Shown here: in pieces, positions 14,591 to 37,707 of the stretch
How positions within the stretch are numbered: the first letter of the stretch is position 1
How the letters are laid out: every line of letters begins with the position of its first letter
DNA from: Trichomonas gallinae
Taxonomy: Eukaryota
NCBI GenBank assembly: GCA_008369845.1
Contig: MRSU01000033.1
Span: 1-37,707 of the forward strand
Direction: 5' to 3'
DNA length: 37,707 nt
The notes under the pieces: model-generated
Seen by the model: the letters and a program-made list of their open reading frames with translations, nothing else
Told to the model about the DNA's origin: nothing
Database searches by the model: none
Made by a program: the position numbers and the translations under genes

Positions 14591-15301
14591 TTAATAAATG
14601 AGTAAGAAAACATAAAGATAATGAGTATTTAAATTGGAATATAAGAAGTGATGAGCATAACATGTGCGAAAACGAATGTTATTATAACAAAAATCATTAA
14701 TGAGATGGATCTTAGGTTTACCAATGATTGGACCTTGATAGATTGATGTAACATAGACACTTGTCATGTTCTCGATTGATGCATCACTTAATGCTTTCTT
14801 ACCACAATATCTCAGAATTGAACCAGTTGAATATTCGAAAGATTGTGATTCTACAATTAAATCGCTAAAACAATAGATAACAAAATCTTTTGTATACCAA
14901 AAAGCAGAATATGTAATAGTCATGACATTAGTTGGCAAATAAATTTCTTTCAATTTGCTACAACTATTTGCCATAACATTTGGCAATTCTGTAACCTGTG
15001 TTGCTGATAAATCAATGACTTCGACTAATGAATTTTCCGCTAAACCATGAGTAACGGATTTGATATTTTTTGAGAAAATTAATTTTTTCATTGAGCATTT
15101 ATAAAAAGCATAAGAATTTGTAGAAACAATAGGATATACAATTCCGTTGATTTCGCAGGTAACAGGAATAATAATTTCTGATGTGAAACTTCGGTCGATG
15201 CATGAAAACCATGGACGAACACCATCACCGAGAATGAAACCTTCCGGTTTTAATATACCAGTATATGTGATTCCATTATCGGTGATGTTATAGACAGTCA
15301 A
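14591..15301 (-). pseudogene. BspA-like leucine-rich repeat gene lacking an ATG start (TTG at 15301)
   Basis: TpLRR-type segments (IDLSATQVTELPNVMANSCSKLKEIYLPTNVMTITYSAF) and a Cys plus hydrophobic C-terminus. An in-frame TAA lies 9 codons upstream of the TTG, and the first ATG is at 15091 (codon 71). Confidence 0.65.
14637..14711 (+). repeat. 75-bp direct repeat, copy 1
   Basis: 71/75 identical to 20478-20552 by hand alignment. Confidence 0.9.
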
Positions 15302-16725: not shown

Positions 16726-19700
16726 TTATTCTTTTGGAGCTTCATCGGGAACGTTTTGCTCTGGTTGAGACTCACCATGTGGTTCTCCATCAAATGCATC
16801 TTCTTTGGGACCTAATTCACCTTCGAGGAATTCTTCTTCTTCGAAGTTGTACTCTTTCCTCGGCTCGTGCTTTCTGCAATAACAAACAAGTGAAACAATA
16901 GCAACATCAATGATTATAAAGATAATAATAGCAATGACAATACCAGCTATTTGACTTTTAGTGAGTCCACTATCAGGTTGATACTTGATTTCAGCACCAT
17001 CATTTGAGTGCTGAGCAGAGGAACTGATACTATATCCTGCTTTTTCATCAGGAATTGTGAATTCTTCTTCTTTATGGCTAACATCGCCAGAACTAATCAG
17101 TGTATAGCTAACCGTGCTACTTCTACGGAAAAAGAAAGGTCCTGTTGTGAATTGGTTTGAAATCTGTTTGTTTTCGTATGACATAAATTGTAAGGAATTG
17201 GTTCCTATCGTGCAGAATGAATAATTAGTAAATCCTACGAATCCATATTCTGAGGTTGTTATCTGTTTTCCACCACGCTTGAAAACTATTTGACTCATGT
17301 TTTGTGGTCTATATGATATACTGTAGATATAAATTTCGAGTTCGGTATTTCCGCTCAATTCAACATCTAATAAATTATCAAAGTAATATCCCAACAACTT
17401 TTGTGAGAAAATGTTGAACTTTTTGTAACTTTTTGAGTTTTCAATTGTATTTATGACATTTATTTGGATGTCATCGTTCATCGACTTTGGAACGAAGAAC
17501 GCCATTGTATTAGATTGTATTTTAATTTTTTGTGCAGATGATGAGAGCTTGAAATAATAACGTCCTGGGAGAAGCAGCCGGCCATTGAAATCAGATATGG
17601 AATTCCATTCAGGCTTATAGTCTTCTAATGCTGGCATGTTATCATCAAGATTATATATCATCTGTGGACTGTCATCATCTCCATTGATGAAGTCGATGTA
17701 TTGATCACTTTGTGAATCAACGGTGACTAACTTGTAATTGGCATTTCTAGTAATGATGTTAGTGTCACTGATACCACTGTTTTGAGGATAAGAATATATC
17801 TGCTTTGAGTTTAATCCTATGATAATAGCATTTTTGCCTTTTAGTACTACTTTGCGTGTGTATTTTTTAGGGTTGATGATAGCTGTAACACGCTTGACAT
17901 TTTGACTGAGAAGGACAATCCTATATGTTGCGTTGCTTGTTGGTGTGAGAGTCGTTATACCTGACAATTCAATAAGATTTGAACTTGGAGGCTGACCATT
18001 GCTCAATTTGAATTTATTTTTATCTGAGAGCAATACAATATTCTTCTTTGATGGGTTAGATACGATAGTAATTAATTTATTTGCTTCTGCCTGAATTTCC
18101 ATGTTATTATAAACAATAGTTGGATTTGAATATTTTTTATCATTTGGTTTAAAGTTGCCAAATATTTCTTGATTTTGAACACCTGAGTATCCTTTTGAAT
18201 CATAGAAGCCAATTGCATTTTGATTTGGATTATTTTCTTCAATGTATACGGCAAGAGCACCCTCAATTTTATGGTCATTGGAATCTTGTAAACTTGTTGC
18301 TGGAATTATTTGAATTGTTGCCGATGAGCTTGAATAGTAATGCAGGAATTTTGTCACTGGTGTTTCTTCAAGTAAAGAAAGTGATGAAGAAGGTGTATCT
18401 GTTGAGGAAGAGATGAAAAGTACTTTCTTTGTTTGTTTAGTTTCAAATAAAGCTTCAGGATTACCTTGAACAATTGTTGTTTCAGATTTATTAACAGTTA
18501 TGATGTTAAATATACCAGGTGTATTTATAGTTGCTTGAAGAGTTTTATTTGCTTGTTGCAGACCTGTATCTGAGTAAATATAGGAGATATAGCCAGAAGG
18601 TATGATTAACGTACTCGGACTATCGTTACTCTCTACTGTTGTTGCGGTGCTAAATTGTTCAATAAATATGCAATCTCCTTTGTTTATAGTGAAACCATTT
18701 TTACTGTTTTCTATTAAATTTGAATTTACTGATGTTGGCCATCCGACAGTGCAAAGCATGGCTCCTTTACCTTTGTATTGTAAACGAATGATTTGTCCAT
18801 AAACAGTACCTTTTTCTGATTTTAATTGCATATAATTTGACTGAGTAAATGAGTTTGTGAAAGATACATCAACATCTTCAGTTTTTCTATATTCTAGACT
18901 AATTAGTGCATCAGAAACGAGAGTAACAGACAGACTACTTGAATAAGATGTATATTTATCCACAGAGTATGTGTTCCATAAATATTTGACACCGCCATTT
19001 GTTACTACAAGTTCATCTGTGGAAATTTGATTCTTAACTACTAGGAATACAATTTTGTTATTGTCTTTTGCGGATACTTGATTTGAACTGAATGTACAGC
19101 TGACGCATTGAACTGAATATCCGGTCTTAATGTTAACAGTTAACGTAGTTGTACCATTGCTATTGTAAATTCCAAGATGGTTAGCCGCAATATTTGTAGT
19201 AGTTGAATATGAACCTGTTGATTCAGTTAAGGCAGTGTTATTTAACAATTTACTACCTAGTGTTGGTATATCTCCTGGATTCTTAAATGTTATTGTGGCT
19301 GGACTACTGGATGTTCTAATAGCAATCAATTTAGATCCGAGGAAATCTGATTTTGTATCAGTACCTGTCTGCAATGGGAGTTCTTCTGGATTACTAGTTG
19401 TTAAGAGACCAGATCCATCAATATGACATGTAACTGGCTTGGTGTATATAAGAATTACAGTAGTTTCTTTTGGAATTTGATAAGATGCTTTATTAAAGTA
19501 ATTATATCCAAATACGTAATTATCTGGCAATTTGAAAAGTGAATATTGAACTACTTGCGATTTTGAACCGCCAATTAGAGTGTCAGGTTTCTGAGAATTT
19601 AGGATAGATATCGCGTACGAATAAGAATCAGAATCATACTTTATGAAAGCATAGGAAGCTGTTTTGTCAGGAATGGTATATTTTTCAGCATTTGGGCTTT

Positions 19701-19764
19701 CTATAATGTGACTTCCAACTTCTAAATTCTTGGAAGAAGCCAAACATGCAAGAATCGCATGCAT
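16726..19764 (-). CDS. Type I single-pass surface membrane protein (1012 aa)
   Basis: Short hydrophobic N-terminus MHAILACLAS (ATG 19764), S/T/N-rich beta-strand-like ectodomain, TM GLTKSQIAGIVIAIIIFIIIDVAIVSLVCYC followed by RKH, and an acidic cytosolic tail. Confidence 0.88.
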   Translation of the reverse strand: MHAILACLASSKNLEVGSHIIESPNAEKYTIPDKTASYAFIKYDSDSYSYAISILNSQKPDTLIGGSKSQVVQYSLFKLPDNYVFGYNYFNKASYQIPKETTVILIYTKPVTCHIDGSGLLTTSNPEELPLQTGTDTKSDFLGSKLIAIRTSSSPATITFKNPGDIPTLGSKLLNNTALTESTGSYSTTTNIAANHLGIYNSNGTTTLTVNIKTGYSVQCVSCTFSSNQVSAKDNNKIVFLVVKNQISTDELVVTNGGVKYLWNTYSVDKYTSYSSSLSVTLVSDALISLEYRKTEDVDVSFTNSFTQSNYMQLKSEKGTVYGQIIRLQYKGKGAMLCTVGWPTSVNSNLIENSKNGFTINKGDCIFIEQFSTATTVESNDSPSTLIIPSGYISYIYSDTGLQQANKTLQATINTPGIFNIITVNKSETTIVQGNPEALFETKQTKKVLFISSSTDTPSSSLSLLEETPVTKFLHYYSSSSATIQIIPATSLQDSNDHKIEGALAVYIEENNPNQNAIGFYDSKGYSGVQNQEIFGNFKPNDKKYSNPTIVYNNMEIQAEANKLITIVSNPSKKNIVLLSDKNKFKLSNGQPPSSNLIELSGITTLTPTSNATYRIVLLSQNVKRVTAIINPKKYTRKVVLKGKNAIIIGLNSKQIYSYPQNSGISDTNIITRNANYKLVTVDSQSDQYIDFINGDDDSPQMIYNLDDNMPALEDYKPEWNSISDFNGRLLLPGRYYFKLSSSAQKIKIQSNTMAFFVPKSMNDDIQINVINTIENSKSYKKFNIFSQKLLGYYFDNLLDVELSGNTELEIYIYSISYRPQNMSQIVFKRGGKQITTSEYGFVGFTNYSFCTIGTNSLQFMSYENKQISNQFTTGPFFFRRSSTVSYTLISSGDVSHKEEEFTIPDEKAGYSISSSAQHSNDGAEIKYQPDSGLTKSQIAGIVIAIIIFIIIDVAIVSLVCYCRKHEPRKEYNFEEEEFLEGELGPKEDAFDGEPHGESQPEQNVPDEAPKE

Positions 19765-20477
19765 TTTATTCCTGTTTTTGCAACTGATTGAAAAATTGAT
19801 AACGAAAAACATTTTTTTTTTCAAATTTCAATTACAATTTATAAAAATTAAAAAATAATAAATGACATGATAATATATTTATCAAAATAATATGCATTTT
19901 ATTCTCGCTTGAAAATTCAAATGTAAATTCAAAAATATAAAATTTTATTTACTTGTTAATTATAGCTATATCATATATATATATATATAATGTTTTTCTT
20001 GAACATTCGATTTTGAAATGAAATTGTTAAAATTATATCATGAATAAAAGATGCTTAAAATGATTCAAAATTGAAGGTCCAAGCTTCGCTCAAAAAGTGG
20101 CATATATTTTTTATATATTTTCGATTTAAAAAAACAAAAAAAACTTTTTTTTTAATTTAGGTCAAAATTAAAGGTGAAAAATAAATTAGAATGTTAAGCA
20201 TCAATTAAAAATTGAAAAATAAATGCAAAACTAAATAATAAAAATTTAATTTTCGTTTTTGGTCATGAAGCTTCATCTGTATGTAATATAGTTGTATATT
20301 AGATTTATATTGAGAGTAAGTTTATACGACTTTACATATAACCTTATCGTTCCATAAAATCAATTAATTCATAGATATATGAATAGTTACAACTTTACAA
20401 TTAAAATGTGGCATCTAAAGTCATTCTGCCGAATATGAAGCGTCACCTTTTTCAATTATTACAAATTTGAATTATTT

Positions 20478-20621: not shown

Positions 20622-23600
20622 TTACATATTCGAAATAAGAGGAAGGCTAACGATTTCACCGTCAAGTGTGCCCATGAGCAAGTCTTTGAATTCCTCGCGG
20701 AATGTGATGGACGTGACACGTACAGCGATATTATCAGCCGACCAAACTGTTTCGCCGCGGTCAGCATTGATGATAAGGAGTGGACCATTCTTCAGTGAGA
20801 TCGCTGCGAGGACTGATTTGTGGAACCACTCGAAAACTGATGCGCAAACGAATTCACCTTTAACTTTCAATACATTGATCATGTTGAGGTTGGAGTCGAA
20901 CGATCTGATAGTGAGCATTTCACCATCAGTGAATATTACGACAACTGTGCCGCTTTCTGTGATGTCACAGTACAATGGTGTTCCATCTTCTCCACAATGA
21001 ATTGTGTGAGAAGTTCTACCGTTAACAAGGCTCGTTGCACTGATGAATCCATCATCACCGCATGCGATCATGATATCGGATGGCTCTGAAATGGACAAGC
21101 ATCTGATTGGAGAGCGGTGGAATGGAACGAAAACAGTCTTATCTTCTGTGTGGAGCATGATTGTTGATGCTGAATCGCCAGTTGCCCAGAACTTATCGCT
21201 GACAGAAATTGCTGTGATCTTTCCTGAGTGCTTCCTTGTTGTCAGCAAGCGTTGGAAGTTTAATGGGTTAAAGAATGTGAATGCTCTGTCGTATTCGCTA
21301 GCGACCATGACACGAGATTCGTTAATCTTAACCATTGGCCTTTCAGACGTGAAGCCTGTTGAAATTCCTGATCCAATATATTCTTGTTCTTCGACGCCAT
21401 TCTGGTTGATTCTCAAGATGCTGAGATCCTTTGTGATAGCGACGATATTCTTCTGGATGTATGCGACAGAAACAATTTCTGTCCTGAATGATTGGCTGAG
21501 CAACTTCAATTTAAGAGATGGATTGAGTTGGGCAGAAAGCTCACGAACTTCTGGATGTGGTGCCTCGAAAATTTTCTGCGGAGCCATTCCAAAGCAAGCT
21601 GCGAATTCCTGCGCAAACTTGAATTTGACTGGATCCCTTATGACCTCTTTAGTGATGCAGTCTGTGAAGAAATATGGGCAGAAGTGGTTTTGGCATTCGA
21701 TAGCAAGTTTGCCGCGGCTCTTGATACCGAAAATCAGGTCGATCCACTGAGGAAGTCCTGCAGTAGCAATTGGGCTTTCAAGAGCTTCTCTGTTCTTGCG
21801 AACAAAGTCTGATGGCGATGTGGCCCATGGTGGCAGAACAACGTGGCCGTCGTTTGGAGCAGACTTTCCGAGATCGAAGTTGTTCGAGTTGAGGAGGAAA
21901 TCTGGCAGATAGAAGAACTCTGGGATGAGTTCTCTGAAGTCCATTGTTGTGTGGTTAACACTCTCCCATGCACGAGGAATGGAGTGGAACAATCTGTCAG
22001 AAATATCGAATCTTCCGCTTTGAAGTTCGATGTGAAGTGATGTGAATGGCTCCATGCGGACTAAGAAGCCAATGACGACAGCTGCACTAGAGTAAAGAGA
22101 GCCGAAGAGATATCTTGTATCATCTGAGTCACTCGAATTCGAGCGCTCAACCATGATGGCTAATCTGTCTTGATCGAGAACACCAATTGGCTTTGACAAA
22201 TCTCTGAAAGACTTTGGATTTGTCAAGTCGAGTTCATTTGATGAGTAATCGGACAAAATCCACGGGAAGACTGGATATTGTGACAAATCGTTGTATGTTC
22301 TTCCACTGTAGATGTTGATCCTCATCAAGTAATCGAAGTTCGAAAGCAATCCATCGCACCACATTTCTGTTGCTTTTCTAACCAACTGGTTAATGTCGGA
22401 AGCATTTTGCTGGATGAAGACTTTGCGAGCGAACTTTTGCTTCTTGAGGACATCCAAGAAAGACTTTCGCTTTCCACCTGGGAAGTCCAAGAAAATAGCA
22501 CGCATGGCTGTTGTATAGATTTCAACACTAGTGTCAAGAAGAAGATAATGCCTCAAGAAAACGCTTTCAATTGTCTTTGTTTCGATTCTGATGAATTTGT
22601 TGCTTGACTCGAAGATCAAATATTCTGGTGTGAGTGTAGCACTTCCTGAGTGAACTTTCTTCATTGTGACAAGTCTGGCGTCGATCTTAATTAAAATGTT
22701 CTGTGTGCTGTCTTCGTTCTTAGCTGAGTCTTGTTGAATCTTTTCATCGGAAACTTCTTCACCGAACACAATGTCTTCTTCGCCAGCAAATGTTGCCATA
22801 CGGAGTTGCTTGAGATGGTCAGTGTAAAGCATTTGGGCGTTTGTGATGTTTCCTGTATCTCTCAAGAAGGAAGCATGTTTGTGATCAGTGTACAAAGTGT
22901 TTTCGATCATCTTTCCGCGCCTGAAGTTCTTCTGCATTGTGTCATCGAGCTTAAAGTGGATGTCATGCTTCGAATCTGGAGAATTCCATGGACCACCCTG
23001 CTGGCTCAATGTTCTGATCATTGTCTTGTAGATCTTTGCGCCAACATTCATTTCATTTCTCAATTCAGAAGCGAACTGCATGATTGATGCATTGACTTTC
23101 TGCTTCTTTGTCAAAACTTTCAATGATGTTGCAAGGTCATTGAGTTTAGCGAAGTTAGCAGAAACCTTAGAGCTAGCATTGATGATCTTGTCAACAATCT
23201 TTGGAACATTCTTCTCATATTCCTTGACGAAAAGCAACATATCATTTTCGTAGTTCGAGAATTCCTGCATTGCGTCGTGAGCGAAGTGGTGGCCTCTTGA
23301 CTTGAAGCATCCCTCGAACGAGTCGATGCTTGATCCCCACTGGATCTTCTGCTTCATGTTGAAGATGTGTCTCAAAGCGTGTGAGAAAACTTCAACATCT
23401 TCTGTCATGTAGATGTGGCTGACATGATTTCTGTCAGTCCTGATATAGATGTTGCTGAGGCCAGCAATGTAGCAGATGAATGCTTGTCTTTGTGCTGGGT
23501 TCAAGCCTCTGTCTGATGGAATTTTGTTTGTCAAAAATCTGATGTGGTTGGAGAAAGACATGAAGTTTGGCGCATGGATAAGACCGATTGCCATAGTGAA

Positions 23601-26600
23601 GCCGTACATGAAGTACAATGATTTCTGGCTTCCACTGACAACTTGGTTTGGTGTGAAATAGTCTGGCATTCCTTCAATGCATGACAATAAGCATTCAGCG
23701 AGTTCGGCATCCAACCAGGCACCTTTTTCTGTTGTCCTTGTTGCATATGAGTACTGGAATGTTGTAGCATCGTGGCCCATTCTTATCATAGCAAGTTCCT
23801 GGAAAGACAATTTCTGGACTTTAGGACTATCTTTTTCTGAATATGGGAAGCTGTAGAATTTCGATGTGTTAGGAATAGCGAACAAGAATGTGAAGATTGT
23901 GTTGATGACATCAAGCAACAATTTTTCTGTTGAAAATGCGTGTTCACCTGATAATGAACACTTCATGACTTCAAGGAGAACTGCACGTGGGATGTATGTG
24001 TAGTCAGCTTGGATTCTCTCGCTCAAGATGTCAAACAAGACAATCATCTCATCCAATAAGTTTTTGTCTGCAGAAGAATAAAGTGAAGCAAGAATGTTCA
24101 AAGCGATCTTGCTGGAATTATCGAATCCTGATGCTTCTTCTGGGCAATGTGACATGATGAAGAACAACAGAGCTGTTTCGATTGAGAAGGCCTTGTGAAG
24201 AACTCTGTATTTCTTCTTCAAAGCCTTCTGAAGATTAGAAAGATATACGCAGGCAAGGTCGTCATCGAATGGTGTGATTGCCATGATGCCCAATGCACAG
24301 ACACTTGGCTCTTCGATATTTGGATTGAATTTATCATCATCTTTGAGCTGTGAGATTGCAACTTTGAGAATTCCCTCATCAGACTTTTCGTCGTATAAGC
24401 CAAAGATGTATCCGAAGATGACATCGGCTAGGTTGTGCGAGTTCTTGTTTGTGTTGAGAACTGCGAGAATTGAATCAACCCACTCTTCGAATGTGTATGG
24501 TTTAAGGAATAACTCTCTGTATCTTCTTTCGAGCTTAGAGAACTTAACGAAGATGTGCATGCACAAAATGTGAAGCTCTTCTCTTTCGCTAAGCAATAAC
24601 TGGAAGAAAGAGTCAAAGTTGAGATATTTCGTGATGTTGTCGACGAGTTTCTGGTCTTGTGATTGAATCATTGAGCCCATGAACCTGAGTGTTTCGAATG
24701 TCAAAGCAAGGTCATCGGCATCTGTTGCGAAGTAAACCAAAGCCAATGAGTTGAACTCTGTGAATGAATCTCTAAATATCTTGGCTGAGAGTTTCCACAG
24801 TTCAGCGCGAACTGGACTTAATTCAGCTGGTCTGTGGATTTCAGCTTCCTTTGAGTTCTTCATGATCTTCGGGCCAGCGAAGAGTGACAACTTTGGTGTT
24901 GGCTTGCACCAGTAGCATGTTTTGATGATGAACAAAATCTTGTTGGCTGGCGCTGCGACTCTGAACAAGTATCTGAGATGCTCATCGCCTTTCTCATAGA
25001 TGTCATTCAATGACTGGTAAATTGCGACGTGTACTTTGAGATCTGCGTACATCCAGACTCTGACATCCAAGAAAATGTCTTGAATCATGGAGATAATCAA
25101 ATCATCATTCTTCAATTCCATGAACAAAACTTTGAAGAGTTCAACAGCTTGCAATGTGAGGTGTCTTGTTGATGCGCGAGCAATTAAGTTACCGATCATT
25201 TCGAATCCTTTGATTGATGCGAAGTTCTGCTGGTTGCCTGGATTGTCTCTCAAGAAAGCGATCAACAGTTTGACCAAAATTGCCAGGAATCCTGGATCTG
25301 ATACATCACTCTTTCCTGTTGCCATGTCAAGCTGAGCGAAGAAAGGAATGAGAACACCAGCGCCACCAATAGCTGAGATGACCATAGATGAGTTCGGGTA
25401 GTATCCGAATGTTGTGGCGTTGTTGATGGCAGCTGAAGGTTTTGTGTGTAAATGTGACATGTTGGCAACTTTGTCGTTGTTTGAAATCGAAGCGGACAAA
25501 AGGAATAAGAATGATTCAGCGATTTCTTTTGTGAAGATCGGCTCATACATTTGTGGGAAGTCGCCTTTTTCGACTGGGTCGAATGTTGTCATTGATGATC
25601 TTGGAAGTCTGCCAATTAATTTGACTAGATTTGCTGGGATGCAAATATTTGACAATCCGCAAATGCCAACATTGCAGTTCATGTTGAGGCATATAGGAAC
25701 TTGTTCGAGTTTATCTGTAAATGGTTTGATCTTGATATCATGTTCGATTGCAAGCTTCCCGCTGTTGTAAATGCGCAAAAAGCTGCCGTCATATGTAATG
25801 ATCAAAGTAGTCCATTGGTTCAACTGCATGTCAATATCGAAGTCTTGGTAATCAGCTTTAGAATCATCTCTGTAGCTGTATTTAAGCTTCGTGCCTGCCA
25901 TTGAAAATGTGAGTTGATTCTTGGAAGCCCATGATTCTAAATAAATCAGTTTTCCTTTGTTAGTAGCACTGATTAATTCCAAGTCAACAATGATTGTGAA
26001 ATTAGACAATGGTGATGGAAGATTCATTGGAGAAACAGCAATGCAAGCATCACGCTCAGTCAAGTGGAAGAATGATGATGGAGCTTCGAATGGTGTCTGG
26101 AAGATCAACAAGAGTGACATCAAGAAATCGTTAGTGACAATTGGCTTCTTGCCATTTGGCAAAGCGGTCATGTTCTGGAAGATTGTCATCAAATCATTGG
26201 CCTTGACAGAATATTGCGATAAGAATGTGAATAATCTGCTAGCTTCAGCAAATAACTTGTCAATTTCTTCGACGTTTCTGTAGTTGCATAAGAACTGGAC
26301 CAATGTTGTCGTGAAGCTAGAGTTGTTGATCTGTAGACCTGAATGTGCATTTACTTCGCATGTTTCGTTGAGATAGTTCAAGAATTTGTACTTCTCATCG
26401 TCTGTTTCCATTAAGCTGAAAATCAACGAGAGTGGCTCTGCGTTGTAAATTGTTCTGAACTGATCTGGAAGCTGCTGATCGTCGAAAACAATGTACCAAA
26501 GATTGTCGACGAGTTTCTGCTTGCCGCTGGATTTCGCGATTTCAACGACAAGTGGTTTGATCTTTGAGAACAAATCAAAGCTTGTGAAGAATTCTTTGAA

Positions 26601-28685
26601 CTTGCCTTGTAACTTTGAGCATCTCTGCGCTAACTTGAGCATTGCCAATAAGTCGCTGTCGTCTTTGGTTTCTAAAGCAAGAGAAATCAAAAGATCGACG
26701 AACTTTGGTGACAACATGTTCGATGCGATTGCGATTGAATTGTATTCGATCACATCGTAGATTGTTTCGATGACAGCTCTTGCAAATGGTAAATATTCTT
26801 GGTCAAGCCTAGCCTTTTCGAGTGTCTGGCAGAAAAAGTTATAAATGTAGATAATAACTTTCGAATTTCTGTCAAGAATATACAATGCTTTCTTGATGCA
26901 CGATAATGCGAATGTTGAAACGTTTTCTTCGTAAACGTGCTGAATGATTGACTCTACTAATGGCTCTGATTCGAAACAGAATGCGCAGCAGATTGGATCT
27001 GTCAACAATGTGAAGATAAACTTGAATAATGATATACGGCATTCTTGAACACTTTCGAACTTAGCTCTAATGTTCTCTTTCTGTTCACCTTCTTCAGCTG
27101 TTTCCAGTTGTTTGCTGAACTCGAAGTGAAGGTTCTGGAGGAGGAACATTAAGTTGGCAATTCTCAAGTCGAACTTGTTTTCTTGCAAAGTTATTTGCAG
27201 TTCAATTGGACATGAAACAGCTGCTTGGCAAAGAGCTGTTGTAATCATTTTCGGATTCTGGAGTCTTGTGAAGCATCTCTCGAAACGTGGGAGAATCAAG
27301 GCAAGCATTGAATGGTAGTAGTTGTTTTCAGATTTCATGAGAATTAAATTAAGATTTGAAACAAAAACGAGTAAATCGTCATTTGTGTACTTGACTAAGA
27401 CTTCACCAAGTAACATCTGTATGATGTGTGCTGAAACAAGCTCTTTTTCGTAGTTTTGAATATTCGCAACCATAACTGATCTAACAAATACAGCGGCAAA
27501 TACCAAAACTTCATATGTTCTCTTTCCACGTGATAATTCCATAAATTTCACAAAGAATTTCGAAATATAATCCGATCTGAATTTCGCAAATTGAGTAAGA
27601 GCCGAAACCATGACATTGAGGATTGGATGTTTCATGAAGCATGATGGATTCGGAGGTATATTAAGTTGAGTATTGAATTCTTTAGAGATTTCTTCATTCG
27701 TTAAAACATAATCCTTTTCGAATGTAGCTGAAATTTTTGTCCTGACAGGAACTGTTAATGAAGGAACAAAAAGTTCGTTCTCTTCCTTGAAGACAGCTCC
27801 GCTAAAATCGAGATTAGATATATAATTAAGAACGAATGTTGAAATTTGCTCGATATTTTGATCATCGAAGAAGTAGTCTGTTCCAACTGAATATCTTCCG
27901 CAGATTTTTGTCAATAAAACAAGGATCAAAACTTTTGTTTCTGGTAATATTCCTTTAATATCTGTATTTAGGATCCATTGAAGTTTATCGATGAGAGATG
28001 CGTAGTTGAAGTTGATGTTTTCGGATATATAAAGAGATTTTGATGATAAACTGATGATATCATGAATTAAATCAAAAATTTCTGGGCGGCAATCTGGAGT
28101 GTCATTGAAAGTTTGGATCAAATACAAGAAGTAGGCCTGGAAAACTGGATTCGATCCGTCTGTTGTCTGAACAATTGCCTTATATAATTTCATTGCCACC
28201 AGTGAAATATCGACGAGGTCGTTTGATTCTGGCGCAGAAATATCGTTTGACCTGAGATGTGGCAATATCTGTGTTAAACAGAAGGCCACAGAGCAGGAAA
28301 GAACAGAGCTCATTCCTGGATAAGTGTTTAACTCTCTTGTAACGATTTCGATTAAATATCTGACTTCTCTATAATAAGGAGAACGCTCTTCAATTGGAAT
28401 TTGCATCATAAAGAAGCCCAAAGCGTATAATTTTCTGGCCGCAAGGATTACATTATGAATTGGAACTTCAGTTTTCAACAAACCGTCGAAATTGAATAAA
28501 ATAGAGAATAATTCGAAATAAGAATACTCTGTTTTCGTTGTAATTACGTATGAAGCTAAATTTTGATCGAATAAAGGCAGAGTATTTTCGTTGTCTGAGA
28601 CAGAAAACAATGTTATGCAGTGGAGGACCATGACATCATGGTTCAGTGTTTTTATTGGTCGAAAAAACACTGGAGAAAAACTCAT
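20622..28685 (-). CDS. Beige/BEACH domain protein (neurobeachin/LRBA/LYST-like: helical region, ConA-like, PH, BEACH, WD40), 2687 aa
   Basis: BEACH motifs WCDGLLSNFDYLMRINIYSGRTYNDLSQYPVFPWI, FRDLSKPIG, SGRFDISDRLFHSI, RELIPEFFYLPDFL and WIDLIFG. PH-like RHYLLLDTSVEIY upstream and WD40-like repeats downstream. ATG 28685 follows an Inr. Confidence 0.96.
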   Translation of the reverse strand: MSFSPVFFRPIKTLNHDVMVLHCITLFSVSDNENTLPLFDQNLASYVITTKTEYSYFELFSILFNFDGLLKTEVPIHNVILAARKLYALGFFMMQIPIEERSPYYREVRYLIEIVTRELNTYPGMSSVLSCSVAFCLTQILPHLRSNDISAPESNDLVDISLVAMKLYKAIVQTTDGSNPVFQAYFLYLIQTFNDTPDCRPEIFDLIHDIISLSSKSLYISENINFNYASLIDKLQWILNTDIKGILPETKVLILVLLTKICGRYSVGTDYFFDDQNIEQISTFVLNYISNLDFSGAVFKEENELFVPSLTVPVRTKISATFEKDYVLTNEEISKEFNTQLNIPPNPSCFMKHPILNVMVSALTQFAKFRSDYISKFFVKFMELSRGKRTYEVLVFAAVFVRSVMVANIQNYEKELVSAHIIQMLLGEVLVKYTNDDLLVFVSNLNLILMKSENNYYHSMLALILPRFERCFTRLQNPKMITTALCQAAVSCPIELQITLQENKFDLRIANLMFLLQNLHFEFSKQLETAEEGEQKENIRAKFESVQECRISLFKFIFTLLTDPICCAFCFESEPLVESIIQHVYEENVSTFALSCIKKALYILDRNSKVIIYIYNFFCQTLEKARLDQEYLPFARAVIETIYDVIEYNSIAIASNMLSPKFVDLLISLALETKDDSDLLAMLKLAQRCSKLQGKFKEFFTSFDLFSKIKPLVVEIAKSSGKQKLVDNLWYIVFDDQQLPDQFRTIYNAEPLSLIFSLMETDDEKYKFLNYLNETCEVNAHSGLQINNSSFTTTLVQFLCNYRNVEEIDKLFAEASRLFTFLSQYSVKANDLMTIFQNMTALPNGKKPIVTNDFLMSLLLIFQTPFEAPSSFFHLTERDACIAVSPMNLPSPLSNFTIIVDLELISATNKGKLIYLESWASKNQLTFSMAGTKLKYSYRDDSKADYQDFDIDMQLNQWTTLIITYDGSFLRIYNSGKLAIEHDIKIKPFTDKLEQVPICLNMNCNVGICGLSNICIPANLVKLIGRLPRSSMTTFDPVEKGDFPQMYEPIFTKEIAESFLFLLSASISNNDKVANMSHLHTKPSAAINNATTFGYYPNSSMVISAIGGAGVLIPFFAQLDMATGKSDVSDPGFLAILVKLLIAFLRDNPGNQQNFASIKGFEMIGNLIARASTRHLTLQAVELFKVLFMELKNDDLIISMIQDIFLDVRVWMYADLKVHVAIYQSLNDIYEKGDEHLRYLFRVAAPANKILFIIKTCYWCKPTPKLSLFAGPKIMKNSKEAEIHRPAELSPVRAELWKLSAKIFRDSFTEFNSLALVYFATDADDLALTFETLRFMGSMIQSQDQKLVDNITKYLNFDSFFQLLLSEREELHILCMHIFVKFSKLERRYRELFLKPYTFEEWVDSILAVLNTNKNSHNLADVIFGYIFGLYDEKSDEGILKVAISQLKDDDKFNPNIEEPSVCALGIMAITPFDDDLACVYLSNLQKALKKKYRVLHKAFSIETALLFFIMSHCPEEASGFDNSSKIALNILASLYSSADKNLLDEMIVLFDILSERIQADYTYIPRAVLLEVMKCSLSGEHAFSTEKLLLDVINTIFTFLFAIPNTSKFYSFPYSEKDSPKVQKLSFQELAMIRMGHDATTFQYSYATRTTEKGAWLDAELAECLLSCIEGMPDYFTPNQVVSGSQKSLYFMYGFTMAIGLIHAPNFMSFSNHIRFLTNKIPSDRGLNPAQRQAFICYIAGLSNIYIRTDRNHVSHIYMTEDVEVFSHALRHIFNMKQKIQWGSSIDSFEGCFKSRGHHFAHDAMQEFSNYENDMLLFVKEYEKNVPKIVDKIINASSKVSANFAKLNDLATSLKVLTKKQKVNASIMQFASELRNEMNVGAKIYKTMIRTLSQQGGPWNSPDSKHDIHFKLDDTMQKNFRRGKMIENTLYTDHKHASFLRDTGNITNAQMLYTDHLKQLRMATFAGEEDIVFGEEVSDEKIQQDSAKNEDSTQNILIKIDARLVTMKKVHSGSATLTPEYLIFESSNKFIRIETKTIESVFLRHYLLLDTSVEIYTTAMRAIFLDFPGGKRKSFLDVLKKQKFARKVFIQQNASDINQLVRKATEMWCDGLLSNFDYLMRINIYSGRTYNDLSQYPVFPWILSDYSSNELDLTNPKSFRDLSKPIGVLDQDRLAIMVERSNSSDSDDTRYLFGSLYSSAAVVIGFLVRMEPFTSLHIELQSGRFDISDRLFHSIPRAWESVNHTTMDFRELIPEFFYLPDFLLNSNNFDLGKSAPNDGHVVLPPWATSPSDFVRKNREALESPIATAGLPQWIDLIFGIKSRGKLAIECQNHFCPYFFTDCITKEVIRDPVKFKFAQEFAACFGMAPQKIFEAPHPEVRELSAQLNPSLKLKLLSQSFRTEIVSVAYIQKNIVAITKDLSILRINQNGVEEQEYIGSGISTGFTSERPMVKINESRVMVASEYDRAFTFFNPLNFQRLLTTRKHSGKITAISVSDKFWATGDSASTIMLHTEDKTVFVPFHRSPIRCLSISEPSDIMIACGDDGFISATSLVNGRTSHTIHCGEDGTPLYCDITESGTVVVIFTDGEMLTIRSFDSNLNMINVLKVKGEFVCASVFEWFHKSVLAAISLKNGPLLIINADRGETVWSADNIAVRVTSITFREEFKDLLMGTLDGEIVSLPLISNM

Positions 28686-31795: not shown

Positions 31796-32509
31796 ATGAA
31801 AGTCTTGATTTTGGTGTCACATGTTGATCCCACGCGTAATGCACACTCATATAGAATAGCAAACGCCGTTGAGCAGTCTTTAAAAGACAATGGCCATGAA
31901 TGCAAATTAATTGATCTCGTGAGAGAAGGATTTGATAAAGTAGGTACAGTTGAAGACTTCAAACAAGTCAAATTAGAACAGTTTGACTATGAAGATAATC
32001 AATTTGAAGGAAATTTGATTGAAAAAATAAAAAACCAACAAGATAATATCAAATGGTGCACGCATATAATCGTAATTGGACCAATATGGTTCGGTAGATT
32101 ACCTGCAAGCTTTTATGCTTACACTGAGCGTGTAATCACATCCGGATTCGCCTGGAATAAGGTAAATAACTTTGAAACAGGATTACTCAAGGATAAGAAA
32201 GTAGCAACAATCATAACTGCTGGCGCTCCAGAGATGTTCTTCACTCCAGAAGGAGATGGTGGATTAGACTCTTTATTATTTACGGTATCTTATGCATTCA
32301 GATACTCTGGTATGAAGATTATTCATGCAGTAGGTATTTTTGATGCAAAATTGCCAGAAAAAGTTGAAGAACATAACGAATGGATTGAGAAACTGAAAAA
32401 AGTTGTCCTCAAGCTTGATCTCTGGAAGACTATACCATTTGGTGACTTTAGGTTACCTATCCTTGCAAATATGAAAACAGAAACCCTTGATACAATAGTT
32501 GATGAATAA
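31796..32509 (+). CDS. Flavodoxin-like fold NAD(P)H:flavin/quinone oxidoreductase (Trichomonas flavin reductase FR-like)
   Basis: MKVLILVSH, LIDLVREGFD, IIVIGPIWFGRLPASF..TERV, LKDKKVATIITAGAP and YSGMK follow the Flavodoxin_2 (NQO/KefF/MdaB) pattern. TCATT Inr near 31786 and TAAA stop. Confidence 0.9.
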   Translation: MKVLILVSHVDPTRNAHSYRIANAVEQSLKDNGHECKLIDLVREGFDKVGTVEDFKQVKLEQFDYEDNQFEGNLIEKIKNQQDNIKWCTHIIVIGPIWFGRLPASFYAYTERVITSGFAWNKVNNFETGLLKDKKVATIITAGAPEMFFTPEGDGGLDSLLFTVSYAFRYSGMKIIHAVGIFDAKLPEKVEEHNEWIEKLKKVVLKLDLWKTIPFGDFRLPILANMKTETLDTIVDE

Positions 32510-33311: not shown

Positions 33312-33317
33312 TCATTT
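33312..33317 (+). promoter_or_regulatory. Inr element TCATTT of the actin-fusion gene
   Basis: Starts 20 nt upstream of ATG 33332 and supports the long N-terminus as the real start. Confidence 0.6.
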
Positions 33318-33331
33318 CAGATTAAAAAATC

Positions 33332-35923
33332 ATGACAGCAGCAAGCACCAAGATACAAGACCACACAGAAATATATGTTGAAGGCAAGACTACTGTTAAG
33401 GTAGAGACAACGACCAGTTCTACCGAATACAATTATCTCTATCTTTTGAAAAGTATTGTATTCCACGTAATCGTTTTGTTAACACTCACATTTCTTTATG
33501 TATTCTTGAAGAAGAGGAAATTCGTACTCTTTATACTCATAGAATGGATAATTATTATCATTATCTTACTTAGAGCATGGATAAATACGAAAGTCGGTAC
33601 GAAAGTCACAAGAGAAACAGCAGAAGACGACGAGGAAGGGGAACCACAGGTCAGAACAAGAGATATTGATCTTGAATTCGAACCAGAAGAAGAACCAGCC
33701 AAAAATGAGACAAAAGTCAGCGCTCAGAGCAATGAAACAGCAGTAAATTCATCGGAAAATGCTTCAGCAACGACTGTAAAGAAAACATCTCATTCTCTTC
33801 GCGATTTTGAGAAGTCTTTAGCTGCTTCTTCTAAGTCAGCTTCAGTGTCATCAGTCTCTGCTTCAGCAACATCTGTCTCGGCATCATCAGTTTCTGCTTC
33901 TGCAGTTTCTGCAACATCTGTTTCAGCTTCTTCGACGTCTGTCTCACAATCAACGACATCAGTGTCACAGACAACAGTTCAGAGCAGGACAACAGTCGTT
34001 TCGTCCCAAGTTTCCCAACAATCAGTTTCTTCATCATCAGTTTCAGCTTCTAGCCTTTCTGTCGCCCATAGCAATGCATCATCCCTTCAGGTCGGATCAG
34101 AGCAGGTTAGTGCTGCAATGGTTCAGTCTGAAAAGGAAGCTGTTTCCTATTCAGCATCCGGATCCGCTCAAGGAGGCGATGGAGAATCAGCAACAGTCGT
34201 CCAAGAGACTATTGTCTATACAAAACTTAACCCAGACGGTACAGTCTCCCAATCTGGCTCTACAACAGTTTCTGTTTCAGATAAGGCCGACCAAGACGAT
34301 CTCAGCGCTGCAATGCTCGCCTCATTAAAGAAGGAAGCTCTTGCAATGCAGGGAACAAAAGTTGCCGTAGCATCAAACGAAGCATCAGCAGTTGCAATCA
34401 AAGAAAGAGAAGCTGCAGGCGCAGTCTCAGCATCTGCTGCAGAATTGCACCATGAAGACGAAAACCTTAGTGTTCATGCTAGTGCAAGCAAGGTTGAGGC
34501 AGGTTTCCAAGAAAATAAATTAGATGCAGCAGCCATGCACGCAGAAAGCCACGAAGCCTCAGTCGCTGTCGATCCAGACACCAACAGAATCACAACAACA
34601 CAAAGATCAACAACAGTTACAGCAGCATCTACACATGCTGAACAACACACAGTCAAAGTTACAGCAGAAGCTCTCCAAATGGCTGTCATTGAGCGCCAGA
34701 ACAAGAAGAGCGAGGTTAAATTCCAGCCACAAGAAGAAGAAACACAAATCACACTCGAAAAAAAAGAGATTAGGGAGTTCACCCCACCATCATCCTTCTA
34801 CGGTCAAGACTACACAAACGCCATCGTCTTCGACTGCGGATCAGGAATGATGAAAGTTGGCTTCGGAGGTGGTGAAACTCCTGATTTGATTTTCCCAACA
34901 TATGTCGGCAGACCGAAATACTCCAACCGTATGGGCATGATGTCCGTTCCAGGCACGAAAGACATATATGTTGGTGATGAAGCCACGGCTAAATCAGGGG
35001 TCCTTTTGCTTAAGTACCCGATTGAAGGCGGCCAAGTCAAGGACTGGGATGATATGGACAAGATCATCAACTACGCACTTTACCATGAACTCAAATGCGA
35101 TCCAACAGACAGCGCATTCATTTTCACAGAACCTCCATTGAATCCAATCCAACACCGCGAGAAAATGATGGAGATTATGTTCGATAACTACCACGCCCCA
35201 GCATATTACGTCGGCCTTCAGGGCGTTTTCCAGCTTTATGCAAATGGCCGTTCAAATGGAATCGTCTGTGAGATTGGTGACGGTTTCACACAAGTCGTTC
35301 CAGTTTGGGAAGGCCAGGCTATTAAGCACGCTTGCTCCAGAATAGAGTTCGGAGGAAGAGAATTGACAAACTACTTCATCACATTATTGTCAGCAAGAGG
35401 CTTCGCAATCACAACAACTGCTGAGAAGGAAATCGCTAGACGTGTCAAGGAATCTGTTTGTCAGGTTGCTCTTGACTATAATAGCGTTCAGCCAACTCTC
35501 AAGCACTGCAGACTTCCAGATGGTAACTCCATTTCTGTCGAGAAGGAGGTTTATACAGTCCCAGAAGTTTTGTTCAATCCAGGAATCAACATGTACCAGC
35601 AAGACCCAATCCAGAGCCAGATCAGAGACGCAATTTCTAGATGCGACATGGACAAGCGTTCTGAGATGATTCAGACAATAGTTATTGGCGGTGGCTCAAC
35701 AATGTTCAAGGGCTTTGAGGATAGACTCCTCAAAGAGATGCAGAACTTGATGCCAGGTGTTGCCAATGATGTCAACATTATCGCAAACCCAGAAAGAAAG
35801 TATGGTGCATGGATTGGTGCATCTATCTTCTCTACAACACCATCATTCCCCAAGATGGTCATCTCCGCTGATGAATACGCTGAATATGGTCCAAATATTG
35901 TTCACCATAAATGCGCTTTATAA
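33332..35923 (+). CDS. Actin-like protein fused to an N-terminal two-TM anchor and Ser/Thr/Ala-rich stalk (863 aa)
   Basis: aa ~496-863 form a full actin fold (IVFDCGSGMMKVG, VGRP, YVGDEA, LKYPIE, WDDM, TEPPLNP..REKM, GDG, GGRELT, TTTAEKEIARRVKE, LPDG, GGSTMFKG, PERKY..WIGASI, EYAEYGPNIVHHKC). aa 35-59 and 64-84 are hydrophobic helices. Confidence 0.93.
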   Translation: MTAASTKIQDHTEIYVEGKTTVKVETTTSSTEYNYLYLLKSIVFHVIVLLTLTFLYVFLKKRKFVLFILIEWIIIIIILLRAWINTKVGTKVTRETAEDDEEGEPQVRTRDIDLEFEPEEEPAKNETKVSAQSNETAVNSSENASATTVKKTSHSLRDFEKSLAASSKSASVSSVSASATSVSASSVSASAVSATSVSASSTSVSQSTTSVSQTTVQSRTTVVSSQVSQQSVSSSSVSASSLSVAHSNASSLQVGSEQVSAAMVQSEKEAVSYSASGSAQGGDGESATVVQETIVYTKLNPDGTVSQSGSTTVSVSDKADQDDLSAAMLASLKKEALAMQGTKVAVASNEASAVAIKEREAAGAVSASAAELHHEDENLSVHASASKVEAGFQENKLDAAAMHAESHEASVAVDPDTNRITTTQRSTTVTAASTHAEQHTVKVTAEALQMAVIERQNKKSEVKFQPQEEETQITLEKKEIREFTPPSSFYGQDYTNAIVFDCGSGMMKVGFGGGETPDLIFPTYVGRPKYSNRMGMMSVPGTKDIYVGDEATAKSGVLLLKYPIEGGQVKDWDDMDKIINYALYHELKCDPTDSAFIFTEPPLNPIQHREKMMEIMFDNYHAPAYYVGLQGVFQLYANGRSNGIVCEIGDGFTQVVPVWEGQAIKHACSRIEFGGRELTNYFITLLSARGFAITTTAEKEIARRVKESVCQVALDYNSVQPTLKHCRLPDGNSISVEKEVYTVPEVLFNPGINMYQQDPIQSQIRDAISRCDMDKRSEMIQTIVIGGGSTMFKGFEDRLLKEMQNLMPGVANDVNIIANPERKYGAWIGASIFSTTPSFPKMVISADEYAEYGPNIVHHKCAL

Positions 35924-36110
35924 GTACTTTATTATGATTAAATAATCTCTATACAATTTTTTTAATTTTTTTGTTAAAAAATCATAATATATCATTAATA
36001 TTTGCTTCATTTAATGATCATGAATTGGTTTATTTCTTTCTCATTATTTAGTTCGATTTATTATCATTAAAAATAAATCATTATTTCATGATGGTTTTTT
36101 AGCGCTAATT

Positions 36111-36859
36111 TTATAAATAAATGAATACAGCGATATACAATATATTATAACCTCTATAATATAAATTATTTTGACAGTGTGTTGGAATTTTGCATTCTAA
36201 TTCCATATATTGTGTCATGTTCATGTATTGGATATCTGTTGGTTGGAATTTAGTTACTAAAAAAGCAATATTGTTAATTTCTAACTTAGGTGAAAAATTA
36301 TTTCTCAATACGATAATACTTTTCAAGTTTGGTCCAATATAAGAAAAGCCATATGGGCTGATAATTTTTAATGATTCTGGGAGAACAATTTCTTTAACAT
36401 ACTTTGCGCTATTAAAAGCTGCCATCCCGATAATTTCAACTTCAGATGGGACGATATATTTAGTTATCTTTTTCGAGCCCGGAAACTGAATAAGTGTTGT
36501 CATATTTTTGTTAAACAAAACTCCATCGATTGCCTTAAAGCCAACACAATCTGGAGGAGTATCAAAGTACTCAAACGAAGGAGTATCATCAAATGGATTA
36601 TCATTCGCTACAGATGATAGATTCCTTGGGATTCGTAAATATCTAACTTTTGTCCCATCAAACGCTGCATTATCGATGTATTCAATAGAGTCTGGTAAAT
36701 CAATATCAGTGACCCTTACGAAACCACGGAATATTTGATCTGGTAAAGTTTTGAATCCTGTTTCAACAGTAATTTTTGTATAGTCTGCTTTTGAAATCCC
36801 TGCTGGAATGTAAACAGTATCATTTCCATCATAATGGATAAATAAGTTAATGCATTCAT
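36111..36859 (-). pseudogene. BspA-like LRR gene with a 1-nt frameshift after codon 6 (about 249 aa if restored)
   Basis: The frame is open from about 36866 to 36111 (IDLPDSIEYIDNAAF, IDGVLFNKNMTTLIQFP, IVLPESLKII). ATG 36859 is out of frame by one T; adding it gives MNALTYFIHYDGNDTVYIP. AAAAGTGACA motif upstream at 36891-36900. Confidence 0.75.
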
Positions 36860-37134: not shown

Positions 37135-37707
37135 TTATAAATAAATGAGAGCAGATAAATGGATGATGTTGAAATATCGGAAATATGAACCATTTTGGAA
37201 TGCTGTCGGTATTATGCATTTTAATTCTAGATATTGAGTTAAGTTCATATACTGAATATCTGTTTGTTGAAATGCTGCAGATTTAAATGCATTTTTATCT
37301 ATTTCCAATTTAGGTGAATAATCGTTTCGCAAAACAATAATACTTTTCAGATTTGGACCTATATTTAAAAAACTACTACCATAAATATATTTCAATGATT
37401 CTGGAAGAACAATTTCTTGAAGATACATCTGGTTACGGAAAGCTGCCATCCCAATAACTTCAACTTCGGACGGGACAATGTATTTCGTGACTCTTTTCGA
37501 TCGTGGAAACTGTTGGATCTTTGTCATATTTTTGATAAACAAAACTCCATCAATTGTCTTGAAGCCCACGCAGTCTTGAGGAGCATCAAAGTATTCAAAT
37601 AGTGTGTCATCAAATGGATTTCCATCTGAAACAGATGCAAGATTTTTTGGGATTCGCAAATATTTAATTTGCGTATTTCCAAATGCACCATCATCAATAT
37701 ATTCGAT
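37135..37707 (-). CDS. BspA-like LRR protein, tandem paralog of the 36111-36859 gene, 5' end outside the window
   Basis: Open to the window edge (IEYIDDGAFGNTQIKYLRIPKNL..IDGVLFIKNMTKIQQFP..YIVPSEVEVIGMAAF..IVLPESLKYI). Collinear with the neighbour; stops are 1024 bp apart. Confidence 0.88.
   Translation of the reverse strand: MEYIDDGAFGNTQIKYLRIPKNLASVSDGNPFDDTLFEYFDAPQDCVGFKTIDGVLFIKNMTKIQQFPRSKRVTKYIVPSEVEVIGMAAFRNQMYLQEIVLPESLKYIYGSSFLNIGPNLKSIIVLRNDYSPKLEIDKNAFKSAAFQQTDIQYMNLTQYLELKCIIPTAFQNGSYFRYFNIIHLSALIYL

Follow-up and report, generated by a model that had tools for sequence, protein, structure and literature searches.

A predicted two-helix membrane anchor ahead of a divergent actin-like domain in Trichomonas gallinae

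Eukaryotic actins and actin-related proteins (Arps) reach membranes through adaptors, and a gene in which an actin fold appears joined to a membrane anchor of its own raises the question of what such a protein is and what it would do. The gene considered here lies at positions 33332–35923 (+) of a 37,707-nt contig of Trichomonas gallinae (MRSU01000033.1, assembly GCA_008369845.1); the whole contig was analysed and is called the window below. An earlier note, made from the sequence alone, took the product to be a directly membrane-anchored actin. The predicted anchor fused to an actin fold has held up, but "actin" has not, the domain being a divergent actin-like one. The preferred interpretation, at a probability of about 0.5, is that of an integral-membrane, cytosol-facing, ATP-binding actin paralogue that would hold filaments at the membrane or cap their barbed ends there instead of polymerising. 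The features of the locus are as follows.

33312..33316 (+): initiator (Inr)-like TCATT, 20 nt 5' of the ATG
33332..35923 (+): open reading frame for two predicted transmembrane helices, stalk, and actin-like domain, 863 amino acids (aa), from translation
33434..33508 (+): predicted transmembrane helix 1 (aa 35–59)
33509..33520 (+): basic loop KKRK (aa 60–63), whose side of the membrane sets the topology
33521..33583 (+): predicted transmembrane helix 2 (aa 64–84; one Glu, E71)
33584..33766 (+): juxtamembrane segment, basic and then acidic, with four N-x-S/T sequons (N125, N134, N139, N143)
33827..34171 (+): low-complexity S/T/A/V stalk containing degenerate 15/21-nt repeats and predicted to be disordered (composition, AlphaFold2)
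34193..34351 (+): stalk beta-hairpin and helix (aa 288–340; predicted local distance difference test score, pLDDT, ~76–82; prediction only)
34643..34708 (+): stalk helix (aa 438–459; pLDDT ~71; prediction only)
34808..35920 (+): divergent actin-like domain (aa 493–863), ATP pocket kept, lacking actin residues 231–237, with N12C, H73G, H161Q, and Y169Q (Pfam, AlphaFold2, Foldseek, alignment)
35939..35958 (+): polyadenylation-like signal (TAAA ... CAATT, then a T-run; motif match)

The first question is whether this is one gene. Direct translation gives a single stop-free frame of 863 aa, as noted earlier, with TCATT (Inr-like, as in trichomonad promoters) 20 nt before the ATG; the absence of a Met at the actin boundary was also borne out, the nearest being M450, 46 aa before aa 496. 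The remaining two forward frames have 15 and 24 stops across the first 495 codons, and the chance of 495 open codons at the local base composition is ~3e-13. The proportion of G+C is 0.42–0.49 through the stalk and actin domain vs. 0.16–0.26 in the upstream intergenic DNA. Inside the frame there is no AT-rich spacer and no internal polyadenylation-like signal, the one 3' of the stop being the sole match to the motif within 33332–36100. Synonymous codon bias, by models trained on other window genes, climbs once from Met1 (84-codon blocks of 0.01, 0.43, 0.62, 0.84, 0.67, 1.12, 0.83, 1.08, 1.21, and 1.0), and a restart of this ramp, sought at M402, M450, and aa 496, was not found (1.07, 1.08, and 0.98). 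A comparable 5' ramp is present in the neighboring BEACH gene (0.1, 0.42, 0.44, 0.46, 0.11, 0.5, 1.04 ...), and a recent fusion visible as a break in codon usage was ruled out because the gradient matches it. Codons 85–262 are coding-like, and the sole Met upstream of them is M1. An intron within the frame was considered and rejected: three 5'-splice-like hexamers were found, but without a branch/3' motif. The N-terminal part has no second copy elsewhere in the window. Taken together, the Inr, the 3' signal, the base composition, and the single codon ramp suggest that 33332–35923 is likely one gene. As a separate observation, codon bias rises over ~400–500 codons from the start in both 20622–28685 (−) and 33332–35923 (+), which are both long and strongly biased; this ramp is far longer than usual.

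The two hydrophobic helices proposed at aa 35–59 and 64–84 are well supported by hydropathy, insertion energy, and structure prediction. Kyte-Doolittle 19-mer averages peak at 2.45 (aa 41) and 2.84 (aa 64) and do not exceed 1.6 in the rest of the protein; estimated insertion energies are ~−1.5 and ~−2.3, with +6.2 the best elsewhere; and AlphaFold2 places a helix pair at 30–60/65–85 in a single-sequence model and at 31–60/63–87 in an alignment-based one. Both helices are likely hydrophobic enough for membrane insertion, and the protein is accordingly described here as a predicted integral-membrane one. The linker that follows (aa 85–495) agrees with its earlier description as ~410 aa, acidic and then S/T/A/V-rich: it has 411 residues and is acidic in its first part, with 49% S+T within aa 166–280. 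There is no Cys in aa 1–495. The stalk segments 288–340 and 438–459 were predicted with higher confidence when the actin domain was folded (AlphaFold2 models compared), which may reflect local structure or self-docking; a complex prediction of aa 283–345 on the actin domain, made without an alignment, scored 0.00 and 0.01 vs. a mark of 0.34 and counts neither way. A C-terminal CaaX or PTS1 signal was ruled out by inspection, the end being KCAL.

The Pfam Actin family (PF00022) spans aa 493–861 (profile positions 2–409 of 410, E-value 1.9e-104, 350 bits vs. a cut-off of 27), which puts the beginning of the actin domain at nt ~34808–34817. The fold is that of the AlphaFold2 model made with a 100-row alignment, the single-sequence model being unusable for this domain; pLDDT is mostly >90, and Foldseek aligns it to beta/gamma-actin with a TM-score of 0.94 and a root-mean-square deviation of 1.6 Å. 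Both the profile score over the whole domain and the actin fold with its pocket residues place it in the actin family. The "complete actin domain" of the earlier note is full length, but it is divergent, with 45.6% identity to T. vaginalis actin (at most 47.3% to each of 370 actin-matching proteins compared) and a deletion of seven residues, actin 231–237. Bona fide actins of T. vaginalis are given as ~74% identical to human actin (PMC9222396). Changes in actin numbering are N12C, H73G, D154E, H161Q, and Y169Q, of which H161Q recurs in 8 of 43 other divergent actin-likes; the loop binding DNase I (the D-loop) is Met-rich with a 3-residue insertion, the hydrophobic plug is rewritten, Q137 is kept, and the domain contains eight Cys. 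A conventional actin would combine high identity, a length of ~375 aa, and no deletion with N12, H73, H161, Y169, and F375, where this protein has C, G, Q, Q, and no F375 at its C-terminus; by its sequence it is an actin-like protein, not a conventional actin.

These changes are unevenly distributed. Counting only sites common to Histomonas and vertebrate-type actin, the nucleotide pocket keeps 17 of 20 vs. 133 of 256 elsewhere (Fisher p = 0.004); this conservation points to selection, and the domain is likely ATP-binding. Between the faces, 10 of 12 pointed sites but 10 of 23 barbed sites are kept (p = 0.034), the barbed-face changes being Y169Q, I289K, K291S, Y294I, L346F, and the missing C-terminal F375. 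Eight of 16 lateral sites are kept.

A search for other proteins with transmembrane helices, stalk, and actin domain, as proposed in the earlier note, returned no orthologue among the matches listed but did return one look-alike. The actin part matched 77 of 2291 candidate proteins of 474–1511 aa (best parabasalid match 45–46% identical, no close relative), and the actin domain alone matched 1013 of 2079 proteins of 207–660 aa, the best 120 all at 47% or below. None of 7987 candidates matched aa 1–500; no orthologue was among the best 150 of 18418 representatives at 50% identity; the ESM Atlas gave only actin clusters for the whole protein and nothing for aa 1–160; none of 27 and none of 302 pattern matches in metagenome contigs were confirmed; and an exact-sequence look-up of window proteins found 0 of 4. 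The searches show best matches only, and further relatives of the look-alike may rank below the matches listed. Among 121 proteins in which the actin domain is preceded by over 100 aa, an upstream hydrophobic peak occurs in 12, and two such peaks within the first 120 aa occur in two.

The look-alike, P0141, is a 480-aa undescribed database protein from among the best 150 of the 18418 representatives, and it repeats the succession of two transmembrane helices, acidic linker, and actin domain. It has a ~32-aa hydrophilic N-terminus, two helices with a short loop, and a parabasalid-type actin-like domain with the same loss of actin 231–237, a spacing found in 5 of 280 domains. Alignment of its first 103 residues with aa 5–111 of the T. 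gallinae protein is nearly colinear (score 55; p = 0.013 by segment shuffle), and 9 of 11 pointed-face and 11 of 23 barbed-face sites are kept in it. It differs in having a linker of ~45 aa instead of 411, KSTNTN instead of KKRK in the loop, a shortened D-loop, and an actin domain only 40% identical. From the sequences, the two may be homologous or convergent. By hydropathy, 10 of the 11 remaining proteins that show a hydrophobic peak upstream do not share the layout, and P0032 has two weak peaks ahead of a near-conventional actin. Several of the peak-bearing fusions are single gene models on near-conventional actin, probably read-through errors.

As to origin, descent from a parabasalid actin is likely on the sequence evidence. 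At 27 diagnostic sites the domain has the parabasalid residue in 10 and the vertebrate residue in 4. The placement among actins and Arps was examined in four trees, with rows hand-picked from 319 actin domains; the 22- and 24-row trees leave out four chimeric-looking sequences and most long branches. In the 22-row mixture-model tree the domain joins the parabasalid actins at 97/96, and grouping with Arp1 is borderline rejected (approximately unbiased test, p-AU = 0.047); the Arp1 grouping is absent from all four trees, with Arp1 labels assigned by the author from motifs. There are no Arp3-type insertions, and the domain stands apart from four Arp3-like rows in the 97-row tree; verified Arp2 was not included in the trees, and the best 60 Protein Data Bank sequence matches are all actins.

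How might such a protein work? An incoming monomer uses its pointed face to join a filament's barbed end; for a seed, it is the barbed face that has to be on offer. The earlier note had left seed, cap, and scaffold open; a cap or anchor fits better than a seed because the pointed face is better kept, the D-loop is Met-rich, and the barbed cleft is altered, and the seed is the least favored of the three because the barbed-end face that templates growth is not conserved. In Leishmania actin, D-loop methionines insert into the next subunit (PMC9200798). The proposal starts from what is observed: a single frame, hydrophobic helices, an actin fold, a kept nucleotide pocket, and altered barbed-end residues. 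From these we infer membrane insertion, cytosolic orientation, and docking. The predicted two-helix hairpin would fix a long tether, predicted to be disordered, in the membrane, with the 410-aa stalk supplying reach and slack; the actin-like domain would add onto the barbed end of a filament via its better-kept pointed face and D-loop; and the altered barbed face of the docked domain would then block further growth.

Several points weigh against this reading. The comparison of faces was made post hoc; moreover, conservation of the barbed face does not fall below that of the remaining domain (p = 0.28) and is ordinary among the 43 other divergent actin-likes. P0141 is not sister to the T. gallinae domain in the best tree, although their monophyly is not rejected (p-AU = 0.22), and the two share no excess of substitutions (12 of 49, mid-range). 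Parabasalid grouping, at 97/96 in the 22-row tree, is weak in the 24-row one; in the 97-row quick tree and the 35-row LG+G4 tree the domain, itself a long branch, falls outside the parabasalid actins among other long branches, although in the 35-row analysis parabasalid grouping is not rejected (p-AU = 0.457). The control for the codon ramp is mainly one gene (BEACH), with its later blocks inside the training set, and the tests that favor one gene are all internal to the sequence.

The most serious alternative concerns topology. With two helices, both termini are on one side of the membrane, and given the KKRK loop between them the actin domain could be exoplasmic: under the positive-inside rule a short basic loop such as KKRK is normally the cytosolic one, and with that loop in the cytosol the stalk and actin domain would lie outside. 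The protein would then be arranged N-out/loop-in/C-out: a mucin-like, glycosylated stalk would present the actin fold at the cell surface or inside the secretory lumen, where it might bind nucleotides or hydrolyse ATP as an ecto-enzyme, or serve to decoy actin-binding proteins of the host or of microbes. There is no net basic charge ahead of helix 1, and the 49% S+T segment of the stalk also speaks for this arrangement. Sequons include 5 of 6 Asn in aa 85–262 (local-shuffle p = 0.0045, in a range chosen post hoc), another point against a cytosolic domain, and, when the stalk is taken in full, 6 of 12 Asn (p = 0.04); four lie within 19 residues, while none of 293 24-aa blocks from four other window proteins holds three or more. 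No sequon occurs among the 17 Asn of the actin domain, where N12 is replaced, but this is not significant (p = 0.22). The sequon cluster may have arisen by one short tandem duplication, and sequons as a marker are unvalidated in this genome because the type I surface protein encoded in the window has fewer of them than expected (ratio 0.48). Precedents of a kind are E-NTPDases, ecto-enzymes with an ASKHA fold on two transmembrane helices (PMC7954995), and an unrelated family from JGI, ENA, and Logan contigs in which the actin domain is preceded by a signal peptide or anchor.

On the other side, the 14 aa that follow helix 2 include four basic residues, which favor a cytosolic location there, as the earlier note implied for the actin domain, while the loop and the sequon cluster allow the opposite. 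P0141 looks cytosol-facing: its first helix is preceded by basic residues, its loop is polar with a single Lys, and its actin domain holds five sequons, one of them in the phosphate loop; the basic flank, the polar loop, and the phosphate-loop sequon were counted for the cytosolic side. To stay folded, conventional actin needs CCT and a bound nucleotide, and the domain's eight Cys also count against an external location. The folding requirement for cytosolic CCT is mentioned in PMC8292509. On balance the actin domain is judged to be probably cytosolic and unlikely to be exoplasmic. The outward-facing, glycosylated arrangement with its proposed surface roles is likewise unlikely, and it is slightly more doubtful still that this is a parabasalid ecto-actin folding without cytosolic CCT and acting at the host/microbe interface, possibly in a family of two-helix actins with P0141.

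An improbable alternative keeps the domain in the cytosol but makes it a tethered seed or copolymerising subunit, similar to those of Arp2/3 or Arp1, starting filaments at the membrane. The full-length fold, the kept Q137 and ATP pocket, the Met-rich D-loop, and the half of the lateral sites retained are compatible with this, as is the fact that Leishmania actin, though divergent, can still form copolymers with the mammalian protein (PMC9200798). Seeding needs the barbed face, however, where 10 of 23 sites are kept, and H161Q, H73G, the rewritten plug, and the borderline rejection of an Arp1 grouping also speak against it. Least probable of all is internal initiation (at M339, M402, or M450), by which the actin-like domain would chiefly be made in soluble form, or a frame that is a two-gene assembly chimera: a second TCATT 24 nt 5' of M339 and the lack of an orthologue spanning the junction in the searches are in its favor and count against one gene, but chance can account for a pentamer of this kind close to one of the seven internal Mets (author's estimate ~0.6 matches), although a soluble isoform may exist, and the missing spacer, internal 3' signal, and ramp restart, the coding-like codons 85–262 behind M1, and an independent protein with the same layout and deletion all argue otherwise.

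The anchor or cap reading can be set against known actin fusions. In the literature searched, mainly open-access papers and also spanning PMC6055528, PMC13071381, and PMC12050087, no integral-membrane actin-family protein was found; the earlier statement that no eukaryotic protein of this architecture had been described thus holds for those papers, but P0141 means that the layout is not unique in sequence data. Tritrichomonas musculus kinase-actin proteins (KAK8881506.1, KAK8871544.1) are likewise parabasalid actin derivatives with N-terminal fusions, but those compared have no hydrophobic peak ahead of the actin domain. The actin of POTE-actin is taken here to be a near-copy of beta-actin, unlike the present domain, which is ~46% identical and follows a low-complexity stalk. 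POTE-actin (POTEE/POTEF, primates) also carries its actin domain at the C-terminus, behind a long fused N-terminal part; it is found near the plasma membrane, and CCT binds the actin domain, but its N-terminus consists of a cysteine-rich domain, ankyrin repeats, and helices, and "transmembrane" does not occur in the main text of its description (PMC8292509). Filactin of Dictyostelium discoideum has an actin domain behind a long N-terminal extension, but a near-conventional one, and the published analysis of that D. discoideum actinome found neither a signal peptide nor a transmembrane helix in its members (PMC2441452). The T. gallinae protein has no ankyrin or cysteine-rich Pfam match, and its Cys-free N-terminal part and divergent actin domain also set it apart from both. 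Group II actin-likes of T. vaginalis are, like it, divergent long-branch derivatives of parabasalid actin, but the 29 actin-like segments reported are 369–1131 nt, too short for the same layout, and "transmembrane" is again absent from the main text (PMC9222396). The E-NTPDases/CD39 have an ASKHA-superfamily nucleotide-binding domain held by two transmembrane helices, but are not PF00022, and their catalytic domain is in an extracellular loop between the helices, instead of after both (PMC7954995). Pfam gives Actin plus a sub-threshold DUF2569 only, with no GDA1_CD39. On this comparison the protein would be a new variant among actin-domain fusions, distinguished by a predicted integral anchor and supported by one independent look-alike.

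Other actin fusions came up in the searches. An undescribed-looking family unrelated to 33332–35923 comprises P0063, P0336, P0178, P0337, P0024, P0028, P0370, P0049, P0111, and P0023, on contigs of 2.2–2.5 kb, full-length in size, that come from JGI, ENA, and Logan. Its members combine a signal peptide or signal anchor with a conserved Cys-containing domain of ~230 aa without a Pfam match, an actin domain 62–81% identical to vertebrate-type actin, and sometimes a C-terminal thymosin motif; the sequences suggest actin domains routed into the secretory pathway. P0339, P0343, P0021, P0203, P0147, and P0211 comprise kinase-actin and GTPase-like-actin (T. musculus), Ist1-actin, and CRAL/TRIO-actin fusions. 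In the window itself, a Flavodoxin_2/NAD(P)H oxidoreductase gene (31796–32509, +) is directly upstream of 33332–35923. A 1028-aa orphan type I membrane protein (16726–19812, −) has a hydrophobic N-terminus, a transmembrane segment at ~aa 955–980, an acidic tail, and no Pfam match, and a Glu-rich 2021-aa protein (8486–14551, +) also has none. Short BspA-type LRR_5 frames occur at 14591–15091, 36111–36853, and 37135–37707 (−); those near the right end are alike in sequence, and the 36111–36853 copy appears interrupted. The window also encodes a Myb gene (Pfam), which together with the long unbroken frames, the TCATT Inr, the LRR_5 fragments, and the actin signatures points to a parabasalid.

That another protein shares this layout points to a small family, or to the layout having been invented repeatedly, and not to a one-off error. 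If the reading is true, an anchor built into an actin paralogue would be a new way for a membrane to hold the ends of filaments, in a lineage that relies on actin for its amoeboid adhesion to host cells; if instead the domain faces outward, it would challenge the view that actin-family folds require cytosolic CCT.

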